From a virus, in UHGV virus genome UHGV-0106931: 38,673 nt of DNA, one strand, 5' to 3'. The notes below the pieces were generated by a model. That model ran no database searches and was not told the origin of the DNA. It was given only the letters and a program-made list of their open reading frames with translations. The position numbers and the translations under genes were made by a program. Position 1 is the stretch's first letter, and each line of letters opens with the position of its first letter. This document shows positions 2,178 to 28,479 of the stretch, piece by piece.

Positions 2178-3629
2178 TCAATCAAACGTTGTGCTAAGTT
2201 CAATTAAATCGAAATATTGATGAATTTTTAGTTCATTATTTTCAAGTCTGCGTAATGCATATCCCATCTTTAGAAAATTAACTAACGTTTCATCAGCAGT
2301 TAAATATCCCTCTAACCATTGCTCTGGTGTGTCTAAGTGGTGTGAACCAGGAGGAGCCACTTTTATCATAGTTAAAATATTCCATGCTGTTTCTATATAA
2401 TTAATAATTCCTGTGGAAATTTCTTTTTTATTATATGAATTATTATGATAGTTACCTTTATGTTGTAAATATTTTACTTGTGTAGCGGCATAGGATAAGT
2501 CAAACGATAGTTTTATCGAGGCATTGGAGACGGCAGTTGTAATTTTTTCTTTTGATTTTATCCTTGAATAAAGGTCATAATCTTTGAAGTTTAATGTAGA
2601 TAGCATTAACATTAAGTTAGGGTCAAAACTCTTCTCCGTTGTAATTAATATATCGATTAATCTTTCGTATATTTTTATAGCATCTCTCAGGCTCATACTC
2701 ATCGATTGCAAGATCGATGAGCAGTTACTTATAAATGAATTTATATCTGGAGACATTGGCATGAGTTTTTTTCTTAAACTATCAAAATCAGAAATAATAT
2801 TTTCACCAGTTTTTGTTAACAATAAATCTTGAAATTGTGGAGATGGTAACAGAAAACGACGGTCGAAAAATCTACTCAAATAATGGCTGGCGGAAAAGTC
2901 TCGGCCATATAGGACCTTTATCGAGTGCTGCAGTTGTTGCGTATCAGTAGATATTATAAATACAACACCAGGAATATTGAATATGTGTTTTGTGATTTCC
3001 AGAAGGCTGATTGAAAAATCAGGTCTGCACCTGTCAAGCTCATCAATTATTATAAATAATGGTAATTTTTTATTTATACCATCCTTTTGTTTTATATGTT
3101 TAATCCATTCGCCAATTCCGAGTTTAATTGTTTGCACTTTTTTATTTTTTTCCGCATGTATATCTAAAAGTTTTTCAGAAAGACTTTTTGATAAATTAGA
3201 AATGGAGTCTATACCTAAATGTGTCTTAACTAAGCTTTCAATTATAATTGGTGTTGCTGTTTTTAAAAGAGGGCCTATATTTTCGATGGTTTTATTAATT
3301 ACTTTTGTGAATTTATCTGATTGCTCTGTTAATTGTTCTTTAATTGAACTAAATACTGTTAATAATGGATCGTCTGAGAAATCATCTTTCCATGCGTCTA
3401 TATAAACTGTAGGGTGACTGTTTGATATAGTTTTAGCAAATCGCTTTGTAAAGTAAGTTTTACCAGCACCCCATTGTGCATTAATATTTATGACTAGGTT
3501 TGAATTTTCACCTCTGGAAGAACAAACCTCATAAAGATATTTAGCATATTTACCCCTATCTAAGGTATCTGAAGGTAAGTACTCTCCCAAATACTCATCT
3601 TCGTTATTCCATTGCCATTCAATACTCAT
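2178..3629 (-). CDS. KAP-family P-loop NTPase (483 aa), moron between cI and int
   Basis: Walker A NAQWGAGKT and Walker B-like IIIDELDRCRPDF, characteristic of KAP NTPases; markedly AT-rich versus flanking phage genes; start ATG abuts the cI stop (TAAATG). Confidence 0.72.
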   Translation of the reverse strand: MSIEWQWNNEDEYLGEYLPSDTLDRGKYAKYLYEVCSSRGENSNLVININAQWGAGKTYFTKRFAKTISNSHPTVYIDAWKDDFSDDPLLTVFSSIKEQLTEQSDKFTKVINKTIENIGPLLKTATPIIIESLVKTHLGIDSISNLSKSLSEKLLDIHAEKNKKVQTIKLGIGEWIKHIKQKDGINKKLPLFIIIDELDRCRPDFSISLLEITKHIFNIPGVVFIISTDTQQLQHSIKVLYGRDFSASHYLSRFFDRRFLLPSPQFQDLLLTKTGENIISDFDSLRKKLMPMSPDINSFISNCSSILQSMSMSLRDAIKIYERLIDILITTEKSFDPNLMLMLSTLNFKDYDLYSRIKSKEKITTAVSNASIKLSFDLSYAATQVKYLQHKGNYHNNSYNKKEISTGIINYIETAWNILTMIKVAPPGSHHLDTPEQWLEGYLTADETLVNFLKMGYALRRLENNELKIHQYFDLIELSTTFD

Positions 3630-5929: not shown

Positions 5930-6156
5930 TGGCTGATGCAATGGATCTCGTACAGCAGCGCGTTGAAGAAGAACGCCAGCGCCATATTCGTGCTGCCCGT
6001 GCCAAAACACCGGGCGTGTCTCGCGTGCTTTGTATTGAATGTGAAGCGCCAATTCCGCCAGCACGACGCCGCGCCATTCCGGGAGTGCAGCTTTGCATTA
6101 CCTGCCAGGAAATCGCAGAGCTGAAGGGCAAACATTACAACGGAGGTGCTGTATGA
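5929..6156 (+). CDS. TraR/DksA-family C4 zinc-finger protein
   Basis: [25 protein letters not shown] is a Cys-x2-Cys...Cys-x2-Cys zinc ribbon typical of phage TraR-like proteins. Confidence 0.6.
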
Positions 6157-6455
6157 CAAGGGCAGTGCGTATCCATCAATTAAAAATTGCACCTAAGTAT
6201 TTCAACGCTGTGGTTGCAGGTCAAAAGACGGCTGAACTTCGTAAAGACGATCGTGGCTATAAAGTTGGTGATGTTCTTTCTCTTTGCGAATGGAAGCATG
6301 GCGTATTTACGGGTAGGGAATGGGCCGCTGTTATCTCTCATGTGCTTCCGGTTAATGACGTCATGGCAGTTTCAGAACAATGGGTGATGCTATCAATTCG
6401 TCCATTAACCCCATTAGAAGCTTTAGGATATGTTATTGCAGGAGGTGCTGTATGA
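6153..6455 (+). CDS. Small PUA/ASCH-like (DUF3850-type) protein
   Basis: [42 protein letters not shown] resembles ASCH/DUF3850 phage proteins (from memory); ATGA-coupled to neighbours. Confidence 0.5.
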
Positions 6456-7309
6456 GCACCATCCTGAAATGGGCGGGAAATAAAACCGCCATTATGTCCG
6501 AACTGAAAAAACATCTTCCTGCTGGCCCGCGACTGGTTGAACCTTTCGCGGGTTCCTGTGCTGTGATGATGGAAACGGATTATCCCAGCTATCTGGTTGC
6601 GGATATTAATCCTGATTTAATCAACCTCTATAAAAAGGTTGCCGCTGATTGTGAATCGTTTATATCTCGCGCCAGAGTTTTATTTGAGATCGCAAACAGG
6701 GAGGTGGCTTATTACAACATAAGGCAGGAGTTTAATTACTCAACTGAAATTACTGATTTCATGAAAGCGGTATATTTCCTGTATCTCAATCGTCACGGTT
6801 ACCGTGGTTTATGTCGCTATAACAAGAGCGGGCATTTCAACATTCCCTACGGTAATTATAAAAATCCGTATTTCCCTGAAAAAGAAATTCGCGCTTTTGC
6901 AGAAAAAGCCCAGCGAGCAACGTTTATCTGCGCCAGCTTTGATGAAACGCTGGCGATGTTGAAGGCGGGGGATGTGGTGTATTGCGATCCGCCTTATGAC
7001 GGTACGTTTTCCGGCTATCACACTGATGGTTTCACTGAAGATGACCAGTATCACCTGGCATCTGTTCTTGAACATCGATCATCAGAAGGACATCCGGTCA
7101 TTGTTTCTAACAGTGACACATCCCTGATCCGTTCGCTGTATCGCAATTTTACTCACCACTACATCAAGGCAAAACGCAGCATCGGCGTAGCAGCTGGTGA
7201 GAGTAAATCTGCAACAGAAATCATCGCTGTTTCCGGGCCACGCTGCTGGGTGGAATTTGATCCTTCGCGTGGCGTGGATAGTTCTGCTGTATACGAGGTG
7301 CGTGTATGA
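6452..7309 (+). CDS. dam: DNA adenine methyltransferase (Dam family)
   Basis: N-terminal KWAGNK and catalytic DPPY motifs; ATGA overlap with upstream gene. Confidence 0.85.
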
Positions 7310-9720
7310 GTCATGACGATATGAGCAACTCTAGCGGCTTTAACGAGGCCGCTACAGCATTTTCATGGAACGGCCCGAAAAAGGCCATTAACCCTTATCT
7401 GGACCCGGCGGAAGTTGCGCCGGAGTCTGCACTTTTAAACCTGATCACTCTGTACGCTGCCGATAATGAGCAGGAACAGCTGCGCCGCGATGCACTGAGT
7501 GAGCAGGTCTGGGAGCGTTATTTCTTTAATGAATCTCGTGATCCTGTCCAGCGCGAAATGGAGCAGGATAAGCTCATTAGCCGGGCAAAGCTGGCGCATG
7601 AACAGCAGCGTTTTAACCCGGACATGGTCATTCTGGCGGACGTCAGCGCCCAGCCCACCCATATTAGCAAGCCGCTGATGCAACGTATCGAATACTTCAG
7701 CAGCCTGGGCAGGCCAAAGGCTTATTCCCGCTATTTGCGTGAGACGATTAAGCCATGTCTGGAGCGACTGGATTGTGTACGTGACAGTCAGCTGTCTGCT
7801 TCTTTCCGTTTTATGGCAAGCCATCAAGGGCTGGAGGGCCTGCTGATCCTGCCTGAAATGAGTCAGGACCAGGTGAAACGCCTGTCCACCCTGGTAGCTG
7901 CGCATATGAGCATGTGCCTTGATGCAGCTTGTGGCGATTTGTATGCCACCGATGACGTTAAGCCAGAAGAAATCCGCAAGACATGGGAAAAGGTGGCGGC
8001 GGAAACCCTGCGTCTGGATGTCATCCCACCTGCGTTTGAGCAACTCCGTCGGAAAAGAAACCGCCGTAAACCCGTACCCTATGAACTCATTCCGGGTTCG
8101 CTGGCGCGTATGTTGTGCGCCGACTGGTGGTATCGGAAATTATGGAAGATGCGTTGCGAATGGCGGGAAGAGCAGTTGCGTGCTGTCTGCCTGGTCAGCA
8201 AAAAAGCATCTCCCTATGTCAGCTATGAAGCCGTGATGCATAAACGTGAGCAGCGCCGTAAGTCGCTGGAGTTTTTCCGTTCTCATGAACTGGTGAACGA
8301 AGACGGCGACACGCTGGACATGGAGGATGTGGTAAACGCCAGCAGCAGCAACCCTGCGCATCGCCGCAATGAGATGATGGCCTGTGTTAAAGGTCTGGAG
8401 CTTATCGCGGAAATGCGCGGTGACTGCGCCGTTTTCTACACTATCACCTGTCCGTCACGTTTCCATTCCACGCTCAACAACGGCAGACCCAACCCGACCT
8501 GGACAAATGCGACGGTAAGACAAAGCAGCGATTATCTGGTCGGCATGTTTGCTGCATTTCGTAAGGCAATGCACAAAACCGGGTTGCGCTGGTATGGCGT
8601 GCGGGTGGCTGAGCCGCACCATGACGGTACTGTGCACTGGCATCTCATGTGCTTCATGCGTAAAAAAGACCGCCGCGCCATCACTGCATTACTGCGTAAG
8701 TTTGCCATCCGTGTAGACCGCGAGGAGCTGGGCAACAACACGGGGCCACGCTTTAAGTCTGAGCTGATTAACCCGCGCAAAGGAACACCGACAAGCTACA
8801 TCGCGAAATACATCAGTAAGAACATTGACGGGCGTGGTCTGGCCGGCGAGATCAGCAAGGAAACGGGTAAATCCCTGCGTGATAACGCCGAATACGTTAA
8901 TGCCTGGGCGTCTCTGCATCGTGTTCAGCAGTTCCGCTTCTTTGGTATTCCGGGACGTCAGGCTTACCGTGAACTTCGCTTGCTGGCTGGTCAGGCGGCA
9001 AGGCAACAGGGTGACAAAAAAGCAGGTGCGCCGATACTGGATGACCCGCGCCTTGATGCCATCCTGGCTGCTGCTGATGCTGGTTGTTTTGCCACCTACA
9101 TCATGAAGCAGGGCGGCGTACTGGTTCCCCGTAAATATCACCTTATCAGAACCGCTTATGAAATCAACGAAGAGCCGACCGCCTATGGCGATCACGGCAT
9201 TCGTATTTATGGCATCTGGTCACCCATTGCAGAGGGCAAGATCTGCACTCATGCAGTGAAGTGGAAAATGGTTCGTAAGGCCGTTGACGTTCAGGAGGCG
9301 GAAGCCGACCAGGGCGCTTGCGCCCCTTGGACTCGTGGCAATAACTGTCCCCTTGCTGAAAATTTGAACCAACATGAGAAAGATGAATCAGCAGATGGGG
9401 ATACCAGAACGGACATTACCTGCATGGATGACAAGGAATTGCACGATTACCTGCACAGTATGAGCAAAAAAGAGCGCCGGGAACTGGCAGCAAGATTGCG
9501 CCTGGTTAAACCGAAACGGCGTAAAGACTACAAACAGCGAATTACAGAGTATCAGCGTCAGCAGCTCGTCTATGAACTGAAGTCCAGAGGATTTGATGGC
9601 AGCGAGAAAGAGGTCGATTTGCTCCTTTGCGGTGGCAGTATTCCGTCAGGAGCAGGCCTGCGTATCTTCTATCGGAACCAGCGTTTGCAGGAAGATGATA
9701 AGTGGCGGAACCTGTATTAA
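7306..9720 (+). CDS. A: Replication initiation endonuclease gpA (rolling-circle, P2/186 A family)
   Basis: 804 aa protein following the early operon in the P2 gene A position; HxH-containing region (TVHWHLMCF) consistent with a HUH-type nickase. Confidence 0.82.
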
Positions 9721-9812
9721 TCACGCGGGTTAACAATTCGTGCTCTTAATAATACCAGGCATATCAGGCTGATGAACGTAAAAAAACGTTTTACATCAGT
9801 AAGATTATTATA

Positions 9813-9832
9813 TACTGTAAATATAAACAGTG
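9813..9832. promoter_or_regulatory. LexA (SOS) box TACTGTAAATATAAACAGTG overlapping a sigma70-like promoter
   Basis: Perfect CTGT-N8-ACAG with AT-rich spacer; TTTACA (9790-9795) and TATACT (9811-9816) hexamers; lies 42 bp upstream of the ATG at 9874. Confidence 0.6.
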
Positions 9833-9873
9833 GTTATATGTACAGTATTGCGTATGGTGTTATAGGAGGAAAG

Positions 9874-10062
9874 ATGCAGGACTATTTTTTGGAGTCTTTG
9901 AAGCTCCAGCGCATTGATTTTTTTCTTAAGCTTGTAGCGGCTAGTGAGTGTAGTGATGAAGAGAAGGGGCTAGCTCTGCAGTGGGTTTCTGAATTGACTG
10001 ATGAGTTGATGGCGAAAATTCGAAGCCATGAATACAGTAGGTCGATGGATGTAATCAGTTGA
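9874..10062 (+). CDS. Small SOS-controlled protein (62 aa); candidate Tum-like antirepressor
   Basis: AGGAGG RBS 5 nt before ATG; downstream of the LexA box; position matches 186 tum (between A and cos). The longer ORF from 9772 would contain the operator. Confidence 0.4.
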   Translation: MQDYFLESLKLQRIDFFLKLVAASECSDEEKGLALQWVSELTDELMAKIRSHEYSRSMDVIS

Positions 10063-10095
10063 GCTTGTTTCGTTAGGACTTGATAAGGGAACCGA

Positions 10096-10116
10096 AAAGG
10101 GGCATTAAGCCCCTTT
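10096..10116. terminator. Bidirectional hairpin between the convergent small ORF and the lipoprotein gene
   Basis: AAAGGGGC-attaa-GCCCCTTT stem-loop. Confidence 0.45.
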
Positions 10117-10129
10117 CTCATAAGTTGAT

Positions 10130-10429
10130 TTAGTTGTTACCCAAAGAGCCGGCCATGGCTGCATATTTAATTTCTTCGCTGGGTATTTCAGGATGTAGTT
10201 GAATTTGCCTGATGATATAGCCAGGAACTTCTTCACTCCACAGTTTCGCCGCGTCCTTACAGACCTTATACGCGAAGTCTCTATTCTCAAAGGCATAGGA
10301 TTTTCCGTATGCATATTGCTGACAGGCATGAACATAAGCTCCGAAGTCGCCGTCTTTATCTGGCAAAGCACATCCAGCTAAGGCTATGATGATTGCTACT
10401 AACGTAAAGGAGAAAGTTATACGTTTCAT
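10130..10429 (-). CDS. Small secreted lipoprotein (99 aa)
   Basis: Signal peptide with lipobox (LVAIIIALAGC); AT-rich moron region. Confidence 0.6.
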   Translation of the reverse strand: MKRITFSFTLVAIIIALAGCALPDKDGDFGAYVHACQQYAYGKSYAFENRDFAYKVCKDAAKLWSEEVPGYIIRQIQLHPEIPSEEIKYAAMAGSLGNN

Positions 10430-10537
10430 GGTCTCTTTCTAAGCGTTTAGCATTATTTAACTAAGGGGTATCTGCCGTGATTTGGTAGTCCCTGATATAT
10501 ATTCTCAGGGACTATGCTGAAGTAGCTTTAATTTTGA

Positions 10538-11344
10538 TTATTTAGAAAGGTACTTATCTCTAAGTTGATTCAGTCTGTCAGCATCGCGTTCTGAAAACTC
10601 GGCGTCACCATAGATCGATTTCCCATCTGCGTCTTCAAGGCCAATGACTGTGACGGTAAATATAGCATCAGCCGGAACTTTAAGTTTTCCCCAATCAGAG
10701 TATCTATTAGGGGCTAATTTCCAGTTGGCTTTCTCACCTGGTTCCAGACCTCCAGAAATTTTATAGTTGAAGACGTCAGAGAACCAAGGGACGCTTCTTC
10801 CTGGGCTGGCAATAACTCCTTTGAAGAATACTCTGGCAACCGCTTTGTCTGTTCCGTTTTCAACGCTAATATCCAGAATTGGCTGATCATTGCCGTAATC
10901 CTCTTTCTGGAAATAAAAACGGGAACGTTCGACCTTGAAGGCTTTCATTTTTTCCGCAGCCTGTGTTGCAGAGGTTTGTTTGGCTTCCAGTTCTTTTATT
11001 TCTTGCAGAGCCTGTTCTTTCTCTCTCTTCTCACGCTCAAGGCGAATAGTTTGTGCGTAATTTATAACCTCATCACCAGTTTTACCTTCCAACGCTGACT
11101 TAATTTTTGTTTCGTAGACGTCCCCAGAAGACGTTCCAGCCTGCATTAGCTCTCTCATGTTGATTTGGCTAAAGGCAACGACTTTAACTGCATCATCAAA
11201 CTGAGCTTTTTTATCTGCAGGTAAGGACTCTCTTACTTTTTGAATGGACTCTTTCATCGACTGATCGCTTGATGCATCGATCTTCGGTTTGTCACAAGCA
11301 GTAAGCAGCAGAGCAAAAGCAATTACGCCAGTTAATTTCTTCAT
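10538..11344 (-). CDS. Lipoprotein (268 aa) with central charged coiled-coil-like segment
   Basis: MKKLTGVIAFALLLTAC lipobox signal peptide; start taken at the internal ATG (11344) that begins the signal peptide. Confidence 0.6.
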   Translation of the reverse strand: MKKLTGVIAFALLLTACDKPKIDASSDQSMKESIQKVRESLPADKKAQFDDAVKVVAFSQINMRELMQAGTSSGDVYETKIKSALEGKTGDEVINYAQTIRLEREKREKEQALQEIKELEAKQTSATQAAEKMKAFKVERSRFYFQKEDYGNDQPILDISVENGTDKAVARVFFKGVIASPGRSVPWFSDVFNYKISGGLEPGEKANWKLAPNRYSDWGKLKVPADAIFTVTVIGLEDADGKSIYGDAEFSERDADRLNQLRDKYLSK

Positions 11345-11540
11345 ATCCCTATCCCAATCGTAAAAAAACAAGGCTAATCCTAACAGGATTAGCGGGCATG
11401 ACAAACTCATAGCCATATAGGTGTGCTGTATAAATTAGCGGGATGAGAAAGCCTGCACAGACCCTCATGTTGAAACTTGATTTTAGCTCAAAAGAGCTGA
11501 CACTAAATAACTGCGCGGAATAATGCTCCACTTTCGGTTA

Positions 11541-11561
11541 GCCCTTGGCCCTTGGCCCTTG
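11541..11561. repeat. Tandem repeat (GCCCTTG)x3
   Basis: Three exact tandem heptamers in the non-coding region left of cos. Confidence 0.6.
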
Positions 11562-11872
11562 CTGGGTAAGGCGTGGGGCCGTTTTCTTCGCCTGATCCTG
11601 CTGTATCTGGCCTACAGTAGGTTGTCCTTACGCGACATGCCACATGTCAGTAAACGGCAGGTGTAGCAGTATTAGACGCAGCTATTTAGTGTGTATTAAG
11701 CTGGCTCATATTTATGACTGGTTTCAAGGTTTGACCGATTTTCATGTCATGCATGTCTATGCTGCATGAGTTCGCATGATCGTTTGAGGATCGGTTTGGC
11801 TAAGACATGCCAGAACTGGCGGGCTTTTGCTCATGTCATGCAGGTGCATGAAAACTACTACATAAAGCGGGC

Positions 11873-11980: not shown

Positions 11981-12676
11981 ATGGCTTGCAGTAGGGGAAA
12001 AGCTTCTCCAAACGCTAATACAGTTAGACGGCTTTTTGCCAGCTCAGGTGGCTTTTGCCAAAATCCACAATGCTTGCAACCTTTGTTTGTTGATGCTGGC
12101 GACAAAAATATAACAATTGGAGAACTTGCTCACATTTTTAGTGCCATTGATAATGGACCTAGAACCAATGCTGATCTAACTGATGAGCAGAGAGGTCATT
12201 TTGACAACATTATTCTTCTATGTGCTAATTGCCATACGACAATTGATAAGGCAGAGGAACATTTTACTGATGAAATTATCCGTTCTTGGAAAAACGGCCA
12301 TATTGATAAAATAAATGCAACCTTTGGTGTTAAAACATATGACAATCGAGAATCTGTTAGACAGGAGTTAGAAAAATACTTCAGAGAAAACAATACCATT
12401 TTTGTAACATATGGACCAACCCAAGAGAACAGCGTTGACCCTGAAAATCCAAATGCAGAAGTATGGTTAAGAAAAGTACAATCTCATATCTTACCCAACA
12501 ATAGAAAAGTACAGCGACTGGTTGAACAAAACTATCACCTCATGAGTGAAGATGAGAAGAATGTTTTTTCAAAGCTTTGTGTTCATATAGATGACTTTGA
12601 ATCAAAACATTTGGGCTTAACCGATGCTAATGGTAGTAGGTTTCCAGAAGCTGCATCTGAACTATTTATAGGATGA
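11981..12676 (+). CDS. HNH-motif nuclease-like protein (231 aa), cassette gene 1
   Basis: C-x2-C (CQNPQC), conserved His (ELAHIF), Asn, and CANCH arranged as in HNH endonucleases; AT-rich; stop overlaps next start. Confidence 0.65.
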   Translation: MACSRGKASPNANTVRRLFASSGGFCQNPQCLQPLFVDAGDKNITIGELAHIFSAIDNGPRTNADLTDEQRGHFDNIILLCANCHTTIDKAEEHFTDEIIRSWKNGHIDKINATFGVKTYDNRESVRQELEKYFRENNTIFVTYGPTQENSVDPENPNAEVWLRKVQSHILPNNRKVQRLVEQNYHLMSEDEKNVFSKLCVHIDDFESKHLGLTDANGSRFPEAASELFIG

Positions 12677-13332
12677 ATCCAATGAGCATAAATGCGAGTG
12701 AAGGCTATATTTCATGGATGGCAGGAAAATTACAAGAAAATAAATGTGTCGAAAATATAGAGGTGATAGGTGATGGTACTTTAGTGATTAATACTACACA
12801 GGGTGACACCTATTTGATCGGGGCAATCAATACTGGCCGGATAACATGTCCTGAGATAAATGAATACCTAGACAATAAAAAAATTGATTTTCTATCAGTC
12901 AAGGGAGGTGTTGAATTTATCTCTGGTGATGCAATGAGATTACTAGAACAAAAGAAAATAGGAGTGGGTTCATTTGGGCATATTGCATCTTCTTTAAGAG
13001 CTAATAATCCGCTTGAGCATCTTGATAAAGAGCATTTGTTTATAAATAGAGTGTTCAATCAACATTCACATGTAAGCTCTGTAGAGCGAGAAACCAACAA
13101 AAAATATAGACTTAAAAGACGTGGCTTGGCGGACTTAGTTATTATCGCTGCGAATGATTATGATATGACAGCGGGTTCTGTAAGAGATGCGATAGGGTTG
13201 CATGGCAATTGTGATGTTGTTTTTTCCTCCAATCCTAATGGACGATTGACGACTCAGGCAAAAGAGGCTGCTCAAAGTATCGGGGTGGAGCTTTACAAGT
13301 TGGGTGATTTATTACGAAGAATTTCACGGTAG
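12673..13332 (+). CDS. Hypothetical protein (219 aa), cassette gene 2
   Basis: ATGA-coupled to gene 1; no domain confidently recognised; a weak Rx6H (RANNPLEH) is noted only as a possibility. Confidence 0.6.
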   Translation: MNPMSINASEGYISWMAGKLQENKCVENIEVIGDGTLVINTTQGDTYLIGAINTGRITCPEINEYLDNKKIDFLSVKGGVEFISGDAMRLLEQKKIGVGSFGHIASSLRANNPLEHLDKEHLFINRVFNQHSHVSSVERETNKKYRLKRRGLADLVIIAANDYDMTAGSVRDAIGLHGNCDVVFSSNPNGRLTTQAKEAAQSIGVELYKLGDLLRRISR

Positions 13333-13649
13333 TGAATTTTAAACATACGATTGAATCGATCTGTGATGTTATTATCCATCATAGTTTATATATGGTGGAT
13401 GTATATGTATTTGGGTCAGCATTAAAGAGTTTTTGCGATGCAAATGATATTGATATGCTTGTGATAGGTGATTGTGTCGATGGTTTATTATTGAAGCGAA
13501 AGCTGCGGGAGCTTGATTTATTTGTTCCTGTTCATATTATTACAATGACGCATTCAGAAGAGTATGAACTGGGATTTATTAAGTCTGTTGGCACTTCTCT
13601 GCTTGTTGTTGATAAAAGCGTTAAGATCAATTTTGTATGTGGTATATAA
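13332..13649 (+). CDS. Minimal nucleotidyltransferase-like protein (about 105 aa), cassette gene 3
   Basis: FGS-x9-DID (YVFGSALKSFCDANDIDMLV) fits the Pol-beta-type NTase motif; GTG start overlapping the upstream stop (TAGTG), alternative ATG at 13392. Confidence 0.5.
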   Translation: MNFKHTIESICDVIIHHSLYMVDVYVFGSALKSFCDANDIDMLVIGDCVDGLLLKRKLRELDLFVPVHIITMTHSEEYELGFIKSVGTSLLVVDKSVKINFVCGI

Positions 13650-13701: not shown

Positions 13702-14730
13702 TTACAAGGAGTAATCTTGGAATTTTATTACGTCATCATGTAGCCAATTGTTCACCTCTCTAATTCGTTGTTGAAGAGGCTTTAATTCATTACGTACAAA
13801 AACCGTGGATGCCTTCTCCACATCCCCAAACCCGCCAACATTATTCGGCATGATACCCATCATTTGTGGAGGCACGCGGTGTGCCGCCATCATGTCATCC
13901 CGGCTCACGTTCTTGATGTTCAGAAATTCATCCTTTGCCGCGACTTCTGACAACGGGATAATCTGAAGACCATCCTTTTTGCCGTTAGGTGAGTACATAA
14001 ACAGGTTGCGGAAGTTGCCTGGACCTTTGGCGCTTTTCATTGCGTTGCGGAGGTTGTTCACATCCTCCTGGTTCTGCGCAGCATCGGTCATGTACATGAT
14101 GAAGCCAGCATGACTGCCGTTAATGTAATACTTTCGGCGGAACAGCGTGGCGGACTCGTTGAGCAGGGCTGACGGAATGGCAGAAAGATAACCGGGCAGG
14201 CCGTAGATCTCCTGGTTGATGTCCGGTTCCATCAGATGAAAGATGCTGCCTTTCGTGAACTGATACGGCTGGGTTGTCATACCGTATTGCACAAACCAGT
14301 AGGTATCCAGGTCTAATCCGCGTCGGGTGTATTTTGCCAGCGCAGGTTCAAGGGCGATCACTTCACCGAAGCGGTTCGTGCGTTTCTCCAGATAGGCGTT
14401 GCCAAATACCAGATAGTCCTGCACAAAACGCGAAAAAGCCTGCTGGCTGAGCAGAGGATGAGGGATATAGGTACTGGTCAGAATGTTGCACTTTACTGCA
14501 ATCGGGGAACTGTGATGCACGGCGGCGCGGAAGGTGCGAGCCAGACCGTCGAAACTCACTGGCGGCTCATACCAGCGATCTGTCTGTACGCATTGCACAT
14601 AGTCCAGCAGTTCGCGGCGGTCAAGTACAGGAACGGGATCACCGAAGCTGAATGCTTCGGCTGAAGTCTGGCTTTTATGCTGGATCTGATTCGTCGCCGC
14701 AGTGCGGTTTTTCTTACTCTTTCCCATCAA
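13702..14730 (-). CDS. Q: Portal protein gpQ
   Basis: 342 aa in P2 Q position, overlapping the terminase gene; sequence consistent with P2 Q as recalled. Confidence 0.88.
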   Translation of the reverse strand: MMGKSKKNRTAATNQIQHKSQTSAEAFSFGDPVPVLDRRELLDYVQCVQTDRWYEPPVSFDGLARTFRAAVHHSSPIAVKCNILTSTYIPHPLLSQQAFSRFVQDYLVFGNAYLEKRTNRFGEVIALEPALAKYTRRGLDLDTYWFVQYGMTTQPYQFTKGSIFHLMEPDINQEIYGLPGYLSAIPSALLNESATLFRRKYYINGSHAGFIMYMTDAAQNQEDVNNLRNAMKSAKGPGNFRNLFMYSPNGKKDGLQIIPLSEVAAKDEFLNIKNVSRDDMMAAHRVPPQMMGIMPNNVGGFGDVEKASTVFVRNELKPLQQRIREVNNWLHDDVIKFQDYSL

Positions 14731-26441: not shown

Positions 26442-27034
26442 TGAAACCTGTTTTTGATAAAAATGGGCTGGCTACAGTGCCGGGCGATATGCGTTGTTTT
26501 TATTATGATGCTGAAACATCTGAGTATACGGGCTGGTCTGATGAATATATTAATACTGGCGTAAGTATGCCCGCCTGTTCCACTGGTATTGACCCTGGCG
26601 AAAACATTCCGGGAAGAGTGGCAGTATTTACAGGTAAGGGATGGAGCCATGAAGAAGACCATCGCAATGAGACTGTTTACTCAATCGAAAATGGTGCTGC
26701 TGTTACAGTGGATTATATCGGTGCCATCAAAAACGGTTATGTCACGCTTTCACCGTTAACGCCATATGATAAATGGGATGGTGAGAAATGGGTGACAGAT
26801 ACTGAGGCACAACACGGTGCCGCAGTAGAAGCGGCAGAAGCACAGCGCCAGTATCTGATTGATGCTGCAATGGCTTCCATCAGTCTGATTCAGTTGAAAT
26901 TACAGGCCGGACGGAAGTTGACGCCGGCAGAAACAACCCGACTTAACGCCGTGCTGGATTACATTGACGCGGTGACGGCAACAGATACCAGCACAGCGCC
27001 GGACGTCATCTGGCCTGGACTGCCGGAGGCGTAG
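26441..27034 (+). CDS. G: Tail fibre assembly protein (Tfa, gpG-like), current orientation
   Basis: Follows H; Tfa-like size and composition. Confidence 0.75.
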   Translation: MKPVFDKNGLATVPGDMRCFYYDAETSEYTGWSDEYINTGVSMPACSTGIDPGENIPGRVAVFTGKGWSHEEDHRNETVYSIENGAAVTVDYIGAIKNGYVTLSPLTPYDKWDGEKWVTDTEAQHGAAVEAAEAQRQYLIDAAMASISLIQLKLQAGRKLTPAETTRLNAVLDYIDAVTATDTSTAPDVIWPGLPEA

Positions 27035-27449
27035 GCCATTCAATATCGGGTGCTGTTGAAGTATCAACACGCATCAGCAGCACACGGTATTTCTTCCATT
27101 GGGTGAGAGTTGAAGTTTCTTCATCAGTTGCGATACCAGCATCAACAGCATCCTGACGCCAGGATATTTCACTGTCAGCTTTTGCACGAAATGTGGCTTT
27201 CATGTTTTCTGCATCTGATATTTTCTGTTCTGGTGAAAGCGGCGGCTCATCAACCCATGCAAGGGTCCCTGAAACCATTCCCAGCATTTTTCCTGTTGGC
27301 TTATTTCCCCCATTAAATCTGACAGCATCCTCATCGCTGATTTCAATACCATCCTGCGGCCATGTCCCCTCCTTGATATAACTTTCATATAGCGCTGCGT
27401 TGTAGATTGCATTTTCGGACGGGCTGTAAACACTTTTAACTTTATTCAT
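27006..27449 (-). CDS. Alternative tail fibre assembly protein (Tfa'), opposite orientation
   Basis: C-terminus (TSTAPDIEWPTPP) mirrors plus-strand Tfa (TSTAPDVIWPGLP); convergent arrangement typical of invertible fibre cassettes. Confidence 0.7.
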   Translation of the reverse strand: MNKVKSVYSPSENAIYNAALYESYIKEGTWPQDGIEISDEDAVRFNGGNKPTGKMLGMVSGTLAWVDEPPLSPEQKISDAENMKATFRAKADSEISWRQDAVDAGIATDEETSTLTQWKKYRVLLMRVDTSTAPDIEWPTPPAVQAR

Positions 27450-27453
27450 TCTG

Positions 27454-27857
27454 TTATCTCCCTTTCGCTATATAGCAAAGATTAAACCCACCGGCGCCTG
27501 ACATACGGGCTGTAAAACCCGTTCTTGAAGTACCAGTTGAGTTAACTCCATAAGCAGGCATGGTTGTTGGAGAAAGCAGAGACTCCTGGATATCTGCCAT
27601 TGTCAGTGTAATTGATTCGACCCGCGCGGGGAAAGGTAGCGGGAAAACAACATTCGTCCCTGTCTGTCCAACGGGGAAACCGAAAATACCCCATTGTGTA
27701 ATTACCCCATCCGGCCCCTTACTCCATCCAGATTTACTATTCGGCCAGTTTGCTGCTCCAGAATACCCCGTTGTAAAACTACTCATATCTGGTACTTGCC
27801 CGGTATCCGTTCCGACGTTCCTCGTTGCCGCTTCTCCCAAACCAACGTTTATGAAAA
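27454..27857 (-). CDS. Alternative tail-fibre C-terminal segment (no own start; fused to H after inversion)
   Basis: Open frame runs into the right crossover site; residues VGLGEAAT parallel LGLGEGAP in H; the N-terminal extension in the ORF track is likely not translated. Confidence 0.5.
27832..27857. repeat. Right crossover site (gix/hix-like), inverted relative to 25973-25998
   Basis: See left site. Confidence 0.55.
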
Positions 27858-27912
27858 TGCAGAGGTAACAGCTAACTGGCATCATCTCCGGTTTTTATTC
27901 AGGGGGATGCTC

Positions 27913-28479
27913 ATGCTTATTGGCTATGTACGCGTGTCAACAAATGACCAGAACACCGATTTGCAACGTAATGCACTGAACTGCGCGGGATGTGAGCGGA
28001 TTTTTGAGGACAAAATCAGTGGCACTAAGTCCGACAGACCGGGGCTTAAAAAACTGCTCAGGACACTATCGGCAGGTGACACACTGGTTGTCTGGAAGCT
28101 GGACAGGTTGGGGCGCAGTATGCGGCATCTTGTTACGCTGATAGAGGAGTTGCGCCAGCGTGGTGTGAATTTCCGAAGCCTGACTGACAGTATTGATACA
28201 AGTACCCCAATGGGCCGTTTCTTTTTTCATGTCATGGGTGCCCTGGCTGAAATGGAACGCGAACTGATAGTTGAACGTACCAGGGCGGGGCTGGCTGCAG
28301 CTCGTGCTAAAGGCAGAGTAGGTGGACGCCGTCCTAAGTTGACCACCGAACAGTGGGCACAGATTGGACGTTTACTCGAGTCTGGAGAATCAAGACAGCG
28401 TATTGCACTGATTTTTGATGTAGGCGTTTCTACCATTTATAAAAAATTTCCGGCAAATAAGAGCAATGAATCCCCCTGA
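27913..28479 (+). CDS. Serine recombinase DNA invertase (Gin/Hin/Pin/Cin family)
   Basis: MLIGYVRVSTNDQNTDLQ N-terminus with catalytic Ser, C-terminal HTH; AGGGGG RBS. Confidence 0.9.
   Translation: MLIGYVRVSTNDQNTDLQRNALNCAGCERIFEDKISGTKSDRPGLKKLLRTLSAGDTLVVWKLDRLGRSMRHLVTLIEELRQRGVNFRSLTDSIDTSTPMGRFFFHVMGALAEMERELIVERTRAGLAAARAKGRVGGRRPKLTTEQWAQIGRLLESGESRQRIALIFDVGVSTIYKKFPANKSNESP

Follow-up and report, generated by a model that had tools for sequence, protein, structure and literature searches.

To our knowledge, among the layers of phage resistance in Gram-negative bacteria, exclusion at the level of the envelope has been charted least, and the few proteins that are understood (Cor, Llp, Rtp45, gp15, SieA and Imm/Sp) each act over a narrow range. 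Llp of T5, the Cor proteins of phi80, N15 and HK022, and Rtp45 of Rtp are lipoproteins of a few kDa, anchored in the inner leaflet of the outer membrane, which attach to the receptor of their own phage, FhuA or LptDE, from its periplasmic side (PMC9586334, PMC12685063). Gene 15 of HK97, the first moron described, sits between the gene of the tail-assembly chaperone and that of the tape-measure protein (TMP), and its product, gp15, blocks genome injection by superinfecting phages (PMC3594210). Ltp, from the Streptococcus thermophilus phage TP-J34, carries a helical functional domain on a lipid anchor and spacer. Displayed on the outside of the cytoplasmic membrane, it prevents DNA injection, its target being the tape-measure protein, and it has homologues dispersed over bacteria and phages (PMC3952083). 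Here we analysed the viral genome UHGV-0106931 (38,673 nucleotides, the whole of which is called the window below), a P2-family prophage of E. coli, and compared two of its minus-strand lipoprotein genes, designated LipL and LipS, with these systems. The best-supported reading of the contexts in which the two genes are found is that both lipoproteins play an anti-phage role, namely superinfection exclusion at the envelope. We regard this role as quite possible, at somewhat less than an even chance, and the specific mechanism of exclusion is held with less confidence.

LipL (10538..11344, minus strand, stop codon included) encodes a protein of 268 amino acids (aa), identical to RefSeq WP_001580535, which is named 'DUF6694 family lipoprotein'. 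LipS (10130..10429, minus strand) encodes an orphan lipoprotein of 99 aa (RefSeq WP_001580534). Both open reading frames (ORFs) were found where the initial annotation of this DNA had placed them, and the three strings it quoted, LVAIIIALAGC, AFALLLTAC and, at LipL residues 103-123, EREKREKEQALQEIKELEAKQ, are all present in the translations. Its view of the two products as lipoproteins agrees with their N-termini, each of which has a Lys/Arg n-region, a hydrophobic core and a canonical lipobox (LAGC in LipS, LTAC in LipL). The signal peptide and lipobox of LipL cover residues 1-17 (11294..11344, minus strand; MKKLTGVIAFALLLTA followed by Cys), with LLTA preceding C17 and Asp at position +2. 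Those of LipS comprise residues 1-19 (MKRITFSFTLVAIIIALAG followed by Cys), with ALAG preceding the lipidated Cys, C20, and Ala, an outer-membrane type residue, at +2. The genes are AT-rich, as had been remarked, with a GC content of 42.9% for LipL and 43.3% for LipS, against 53.3% for gpA and 54.8% for the portal and terminase genes. The ratio of nonsynonymous to synonymous substitution rates (dN/dS, Nei-Gojobori) was 0.064 for LipL versus a phage-plasmid copy and 0.093 versus a Citrobacter P2-like copy; for LipS, values of 0.079 and 0.134 were obtained. Judged by these ratios (0.06-0.13), both genes are real and under strong purifying selection.

Three competing interpretations of the coding sequences were discarded. 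A 292-aa version of LipL, starting at 11416, is an over-extended annotation artefact, because homologues and RefSeq begin at MKK and a conserved promoter-like element falls inside the extra codons. An 88-aa ORF crossing LipS in another frame (10105..10371, minus strand) is not a gene, since it is about 35% conserved in phage-plasmid copies, versus 74-84% for the LipS frame. Finally, two LipL homologues, L111 and L112, seem frameshifted by 1-nt indels, which lie in homopolymers (G4/A5) of draft assemblies and are probably sequencing errors; they were not counted as signs of decay.

The two genes lie between gpA, the P2 replication endonuclease gene (7306..9720, plus strand; 'replication endonuclease' in RefSeq), and the portal gene Q (13702..14730), at the gpA-proximal edge of the A-Q hotspot. 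This is the locus occupied by old and tin in P2 (PMC9122126), as the initial annotation had recognised. On the gpA side, a DNA identity of 92-94% to Fels-2 and P2-like phages ends at about 10063, and a megablast search against 50,697 phage records matched only the gpA end and a small ORF (query positions 1-364). The two genes being absent from these P2-like phage matches, they are cargo and not part of the P2 backbone. The 2 kb surrounding them (9700-11700) are 100% identical to E. coli LR-29-1, in which the prophage is inserted between ybjL and rcdA; the left flank gene of the window encodes a TetR-family protein, as does rcdA. The cassette was present in 20 of 5,426 complete E. coli genomes, and copies at least 95% identical stay by gpA, where they face at least 11 different portal-side cargos.

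The cassette, of about 1.3 kb, reads in the order promoter-like element, LipL, hairpin, LipS, terminator-like hairpin, and its GC content is about 10 points under that of the core genes. The promoter-like element (11377..11404, minus strand) was predicted by a consensus scan and is composed of a -35 box TTGTCA, a 16-nt spacer and an extended -10 box TGtTAGGAT. An inverted repeat (GCTAATCCT/AGGATTAGC) with a T-run after it overlaps the element, the hairpin being insignificant by itself (z -1.3), and the arrangement TTGTC[AC]-N16-TGTTAGGAT is kept in a 76%-identical phage-plasmid cassette. Between the genes, a hairpin with a 10-bp stem, a 9-nt loop and no U-tract (10486..10514, minus strand) has a predicted RNA folding energy of -17.7 kcal/mol (z -5.0), a value equalled by 0 of 200 shuffles; its GTCCCTGAGA arm and the 108-nt spacer separating LipL from LipS are also retained in the phage-plasmid cassette. 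The closing hairpin resembles an intrinsic terminator (10087..10117, minus strand; AAAGGGGC-UUAAU-GCCCCUUU, then UUCGGUU; -15.1 kcal/mol, z -2.5) and is common to a small convergent ORF (9874..10062, plus strand), to which the cassette is arranged tail to tail.

The same pair of genes was found on a 145-kb viral contig (L110) and on a Citrobacter plasmid of 105.9 kb, non-mobilizable and of the IncFIB type. This plasmid is an SSU5-like phage-plasmid that also has dnaE, gp32-like, exonuclease and RecA genes. Contig and plasmid keep the order and 108-nt spacer of the window, with a protein identity of 76% for LipL and 74% for LipS. DNA homology between the window and the phage-plasmid copy starts about 70 nt 5' of the LipL ATG, takes in the promoter-like element, and stops at the terminator. 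A moron, as Juhala and Hendrix use the term, is an added unit that is transcribed independently. The description of these genes as a moron in the A-Q hotspot was upheld: they are inserted between conserved backbone genes, their base composition deviates from that of these neighbours, and homology ends at the promoter-like and terminator-like signals predicted to bound the cassette. By sequence comparison, the cassette is shown to be a self-contained, bounded and horizontally moving moron, encoding two unrelated exported lipoproteins.

This cassette is already catalogued, without a function. The pair LipL-LipS is 'system #103' of the P2 hotspot in Table S5B of Rousset et al. (2022, Cell Host Microbe), present in 31 of 18,150 P2 A-Q loci, flagged 'signal peptide: protein 1 and 2', and not among the systems described as cloned and tested (PMC9122126). 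Protein 2 of the entry is identical to LipS, and protein 1 corresponds to LipL in its 292-aa version, with one residue different. The entry, which concerns the same object, says nothing on DUF6694, the wider family or its contexts. It carries the Pfam labels LPAM_1 and Lysis_col (PMC9122126); we do not retain these as family identities, the matches being confined to the signal peptides.

Residues 7-101 of LipL match Pfam PF20404 with 79.2 bits (cut-off 24.3; E value 3.5e-22), and this score together with the lipobox Cys places it in DUF6694. Pfam yielded only this family, PHROGs only phrog_7468 (E 7e-161), of unknown function, and NCBIfam nothing useful. The initial annotation had named relatedness to a housekeeping lipoprotein whose function is known as an outcome that would speak against its proposal; these searches returned no such relative, DUF6694 being itself of unknown function. 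A model of LipL computed by AlphaFold2 (AF2) with a 40-sequence alignment had a mean predicted local distance difference test score (pLDDT) of 85.8. In this model, the lipid anchor is followed by a disordered tether, a small helical base (residues 27-85), a charged stalk made of a single helix (residues 90-133; 10946..11077, minus strand; pLDDT about 90), a C-terminal beta-sandwich head of six strands (residues 136-237; 10634..10939, minus strand) and a final charged helix (residues 252-265; 10550..10591, minus strand). The charged middle and distinct C-terminal domain read earlier from the sequence correspond to the stalk and the sandwich.

The sandwich is the best-conserved part of the protein and contains most of its invariant residues, in the motifs SRF, SPGRSVPW, F.Y.I.GG.EP.E, LAPN..S.WG and P.DA.FTV. 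Three independent lineages of LipL have insertions, of 22 aa in L091 and L164, and of 36 aa in the metagenomic homologue P0061, which has three tandem 18-aa repeats (EARERQQALDEIKELEQK-like) there. All fall within the long helix, which therefore behaves like a stalk of adjustable length bearing a constrained head. The lipobox is retained in 135 of 137 full-length homologues. The residue at +2 is Asp in enterics, Gly in Pseudomonas and Ser in Alcanivorax; under the Lol-avoidance rule, Asp at this position signals retention in the inner membrane, and from these residues the localisation of LipL may differ between hosts. For enteric LipL, Asp predicts the same membrane face as that of Ltp. The two proteins differ in that Ltp belongs to a Gram-positive host and is encoded in the lysogeny module, and in that LipL has an additional beta-sandwich head; Pfam and structure searches gave no match between them in sequence or fold.

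When one genome from each of 185,579 species was scanned by pattern, 118 LipL relatives, of 40-55% identity, were confirmed in Gamma-, Beta- and Deltaproteobacteria, Bacteroidota, Acidobacteriota and Planctomycetota, and 67 viral loci were found in IMG/VR. Neighbouring genes from 143 loci were grouped into clusters, which were named by Pfam. In 45 loci, belonging to lambda-like prophages, LipL adjoins the TMP gene and is co-oriented with it: 37 times directly upstream (with two TMP families), once one ORF further upstream, and seven times in the interval between TMP and gpM. In the 37 upstream loci, LipL comes after tail tube and tail-assembly chaperone genes, these being identified only in some. 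Across the 45 adjacent loci, the gap to TMP is mostly short, with a median of about 56 nt. The TMP-adjacent loci make up most of the 28 LipL clusters (90% identity) formed by 49 tail-module loci, and in each of 48 tail-module loci out of 48 the GC content of LipL was lower than that of the flanking DNA (48.8% versus 58.4%). Other phage slots are the K/I interval of Pseudomonas phage PseuP_222, a head-tail gene interval in a P. aeruginosa phage, an integrase-adjacent position in Marinobacter phage AS1, a position after TMP in E. coli phage PHB10, the P2 A-Q hotspot and the replication module of phage-plasmids. On this genomic evidence, phages have acquired LipL independently in at least six slots. 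Its patchy spread and high conservation look like those typical of mobile cargo. No conserved partner gene for LipL was found among the fetched loci, about 10 of which had unrelated secreted neighbours.

The position directly upstream of TMP, held by LipL in the 37 loci, is the moron slot in which gp15 of HK97 is encoded, and gp15, like LipL, has bacterial homologues outside prophages. The proteins themselves are different, gp15 being a small YebO-family protein of the inner membrane that has a transmembrane helix, and LipL a 268-aa lipoprotein with a stalk and a beta-sandwich. No YebO homology of LipL was detected in the Pfam search, nor any hydrophobic segment beyond the cleavable lipoprotein signal, so that only the genomic slot is shared. 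The LipL gene of the window differs further from gene 15 in lying outside the tail operon.

A second recurrent context is the vicinity of defence genes. PADLOC families adjoining the 69 LipL loci of species genomes that lie outside tail modules were WYL (eight cases), BrxA (two), AriA (two), PD-Lambda-1, a type I methyltransferase, PDC-S23 and PDC-S05. In integrase-bearing islands of Alcanivorax and Alloalcanivorax (L074, L038, L029 and L037), LipL (about 6000..6800) stands between a divergent WYL gene (BrxR-like) and a defence system. The latter is BrxA-BrxB-BrxC, of the bacteriophage exclusion (BREX) type, in three genomes (two BrxA subtypes), and in L037 a type I restriction enzyme with an RmuC-like protein takes the BREX position, the WYL-LipL pair remaining constant. 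Together with the P2 cassette and its variable neighbouring cargos, these islands mean that LipL tends to occupy the border of defence slots, a border that stays fixed while the contents of the slot vary. We take the association as suggestive; it is qualitative, has no genome-wide control, and its eight WYL cases come from one genus.

The smaller protein, LipS, matches phrog_7666 (E 1e-64), of unknown function, and gave no match in the Pfam PF20404 search. Its alignment with homologues shows an invariant DKDGD motif and three invariant cysteines (Cys20, Cys36 and Cys57), with the lipobox present in all. The signal peptide is variable (proportion of nonsynonymous differences, pN, 0.52), whereas the mature part, of about 9 kDa, is conserved (pN 0.083) and 84% identical to phage-plasmid copies. 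AF2 proposed a four-helix model of low confidence (pLDDT 63.6), too poor for a fold search. A word-based search returned 14 clusters of LipS, all from Enterobacteriaceae, and an exhaustive profile search of 1.84 billion representatives returned three true clusters; two weak matches, P0136 and P0137, were rejected as translated tandem-repeat junk ORFs. The idea that LipS is a Sel1-like repeat unit was also dropped, for lack of a Pfam match.

LipS is confined to enterobacterial P2-like prophages and phage-plasmids of about 110 kb, none being found outside phage elements. It occurs in 215 PLSDB records, some 200 of which are non-mobilizable Klebsiella phage-plasmids of about 110 kb, where the gene is placed in the replication module. 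In all elements it sits behind another lipoprotein gene. In the phage-plasmids of about 110 kb this is LipX, an unrelated Cys-rich lipoprotein of 139-144 aa (MIKKTLITGMSFIMVG followed by Cys), whose gene is 10 nt upstream of LipS (5571..5990 in L011 and 5556..5990 in L015, Klebsiella and Buttiauxella phage-plasmids). LipL replaces LipX in Citrobacter and Enterobacter elements and in P2. The layout 'lipoprotein plus LipS' is therefore conserved while the first partner changes.

Compared to Llp, Cor and Rtp45, LipS has the lipobox, the outer-membrane type residue at +2, the small size and two invariant cysteines in common. It differs in being predicted helical (from a poor model) and in lying, in P2 as in the phage-plasmids, away from any adjoining receptor-binding-protein or tail-fibre gene. 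Lipoproteins of the Llp and Rtp45 type have an intramolecular disulfide, and their genes adjoin the one for the receptor-binding protein. LipL departs further from these proteins, as it is much larger and its conservation extends over phyla with differing receptors.

From these contexts we propose that both lipoproteins are expressed from the prophage and would counter phages at the level of the envelope, working in the periplasm. The stalk of LipL would hold its head out from the membrane, and the head would bind either a conserved envelope component or the incoming tail and tape-measure apparatus, thereby blocking envelope penetration or genome delivery rather than adsorption to a particular receptor. 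The conservation of LipL across phyla argues against the masking of a specific receptor in the manner of Cor or Llp, and favours a conserved periplasmic target or the tail and tape-measure machinery; the target is inferred by analogy with gp15 and Ltp. LipS would act on an enterobacterial outer-membrane component, like Llp, Cor and Rtp45, and the two proteins would work independently or additively, not as an obligate pair. An exclusion function gains independent contextual support from the recurrence of LipL by TMP genes, in the gp15 slot, and at the edges of defence slots. In a broader version, DUF6694 lipoproteins would form an unrecognised, phylum-spanning class of envelope anti-phage proteins, whose head binds a universal component (for example peptidoglycan) or the tape-measure and tail-tip complex and blocks genome delivery by many unrelated tailed phages, with LipS as a second, enterobacteria-specific exclusion factor. 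We consider this broader version somewhat unlikely; if true, it would explain at once the TMP-adjacent insertions, the position at the edge of defence hotspots and the conservation across phyla.

Several observations weigh against an exclusion role. The membership of the Cor or Llp families suggested by the initial annotation was not supported. Cor proteins inactivate FhuA and thereby prevent FhuA-dependent phages from adsorbing. LipL matched the Cor family of PHROGs (phrog_1119) with an E value of 0.054, over residues 1-20, that is, the signal peptide only, and LipS did not match it at all. The LipS profile had 0 matches at E<=10 among all PDB chain sequences, and tblastn with mature LipS found nothing at E<=10 in genomes of the T5, phi80, N15, HK022 or Rtp type, which leaves it without homology to Llp or Rtp45 in these sets. 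Neither protein matched any family of the PADLOC-DB v2 protein models at E<=0.1 (0 families), fold searches of PDB and BFVD with LipL gave generic hits only, sugar- or lipid-binding sandwiches among them, and a literature search found no paper mentioning DUF6694, PF20404, the PHROG identifiers or the RefSeq accessions. Among species genomes, 9 of 78 LipL loci are in tail modules and 69 are not; several copies stand alone between housekeeping genes, at rplS in Pectobacterium and between ldhA and ydbH in Enterobacter. LipL is interrupted by IS1 in two complete E. coli genomes, ECONIH4 (NZ_CP026399.1) and CAVP776 (NZ_CM176338.1; hits H29/H30), which means that it is dispensable for prophage maintenance. 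The variable residue at +2 (Asp versus Gly or Ser) makes a single geometric mechanism uncertain, and the co-orientation of LipL inside late tail operons also fits a lytic-cycle role. Finally, lipoprotein morons can serve the fitness of the host instead, as do Bor of lambda and the plasmid-encoded TraT.

We examined this last point by comparing the two genes with Bor and TraT, which are likewise mobile-element lipoproteins expressed in the carrier cell and altering its envelope properties. A host-fitness or virulence moron of this kind, changing envelope traits of the lysogen such as resistance to serum or complement, tolerance of stress, or adhesion, with no direct effect on phages, appears unlikely. 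Bor and TraT confer serum resistance or surface exclusion in conjugation, and Pfam and PHROGs searches found no homology between them and LipL or LipS. Members of the LipL family are found in marine, soil and sulfate-reducing bacteria, where virulence towards an animal host is irrelevant, and a fitness role does not predict repeated insertion by TMP genes and at the edges of BREX and restriction-modification (RM) systems. It would, however, accommodate the LipL copies next to housekeeping genes, those standing alone, with IS1, IS5 and transposase fragments as neighbours, on three small E. coli plasmids, and the fold hits to sugar- or lipid-binding sandwiches, which fit general envelope binding. 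Lipoprotein morons with fitness roles exist (Bor, cited in PMC3594210), and P2 hotspots also hold cargo unrelated to defence, such as cytolethal distending toxin and partition systems (PMC9122126).

The tail-operon loci bear on another explanation, in which LipL is made late in the lytic cycle and keeps progeny phages from adsorbing again to cells undergoing lysis and to debris, or from injecting into them, or tunes the breakdown of the envelope at lysis. Such protection of progeny has been described as a second role of T5 Llp, and for Rtp45 (PMC9586334, PMC12685063), and co-orientation with TMP in 45 of 45 adjacent loci, at a median gap of about 56 nt, is what late expression would produce. 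The explanation is nevertheless quite unlikely, given that the cassette of the window is outside the late operons, with promoter-like and terminator-like signals of its own, and that many LipL homologues are wholly outside phages. A role of LipL as a spanin was rejected, whether o-spanin or u-spanin. Spanin genes belong to the lysis cassette; an o-spanin is a small lipoprotein of the outer membrane, rich in proline, with an i-spanin as partner, and a u-spanin combines a lipoprotein signal with a membrane helix at the C-terminus. The cassette is far from the lysis genes, and the C-terminus of LipL is charged (SERDADRLNQLRDKYLSK) and has no membrane-spanning segment, which excludes a unimolecular spanin. 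Besides, the LR-29-1 prophage, 100% identical over the LipL-LipS region, already holds a complete lysis set, made of a holin, a lysozyme and the spanins LysB (Rz-like) and LysC (Rz1-like).

The listing of the pair as a single 'system' in Table S5B of Rousset et al. implies that LipL and LipS might work only jointly. Order, orientation and the 108-nt spacer are indeed kept in two phage types at 76%/74% identity, and LipS of phage-plasmids invariably follows a lipoprotein gene, LipL or LipX. Against this, LipL occurs without LipS in all 128 fetched loci below 70% identity, with no conserved partner gene, and has moved alone onto plasmids, while LipS occurs without LipL in some 200 Klebsiella phage-plasmids. 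Each gene being found without the other, we conclude that LipL and LipS are separable modules, and an obligate two-component system is decidedly improbable.

That LipL is an ordinary periplasmic lipoprotein with a cellular role, passively carried, and LipS a decaying orphan is very improbable, for although some chromosomal LipL copies stand alone and IS1 knock-outs are tolerated, both genes are under strong purifying selection inside phages, LipL has entered at least six phage slots independently, and LipS, present in 215 PLSDB phage-plasmid records, was not found outside phage elements.

Other cargo is present in the window. On the portal side of the hotspot, outside the cassette, lies a three-gene operon (11981..13649, plus strand) encoding an HNH protein of 231 aa, a protein of 219 aa without matches, and a nucleotidyltransferase-like protein of 105 aa. 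The HNH protein matches PADLOC PDC-M68A (E 2e-29) as well as HNH effector models (N-domains) of the type found in cyclic-oligonucleotide-based anti-phage signalling systems (CBASS), and weak Pfam matches to HNH_2 and, for the 105-aa protein, to Polbeta were seen. With a GC content of 36.8%, and found in other P2 loci without lipoprotein genes, this operon is probably the conventional defence cargo of the hotspot. Neither the operon nor the independence of the two lipoprotein modules had been picked up in the initial annotation.

Two further segments of the window were recorded. Between the integrase and CI repressor genes, a gene of 29-35% GC (2178..3629, minus strand) encodes a 483-aa P-loop NTPase of the KAP family, matching the PADLOC candidate PDC-S20 (E 5e-84) and, more weakly, PifA and QatA. 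The LR-29-1 prophage, which otherwise matches, lacks it, and this position is therefore a second cargo site. At about 27006..28479, ORFs for a Caudo_TAP tail-fibre-assembly protein and a gp53-like tail-fibre C-terminus lie in opposite orientations and, in the LR-29-1 annotation, adjoin a 'recombinase family protein' gene, an arrangement that resembles the invertible segments for host range of the Mu Gin or P1 Cin type.

A lipoprotein family placed by TMP genes across genera of temperate phages, and at the entrance of BREX, RM and P2 hotspots, would be a useful lead. A study of LipL could reveal how genome delivery through the periplasm is blocked, and which conserved feature of the envelope tailed phages need. 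Genes of this kind, carried by prophages and by common Klebsiella phage-plasmids, could narrow the host ranges of phages used in therapy, and current defence finders miss them. If LipL and LipS are fitness morons instead, they mark a limit on the annotation of P2 loci by 'guilt by hotspot'. The DUF6694 family is broad enough for a positive result to matter beyond P2.

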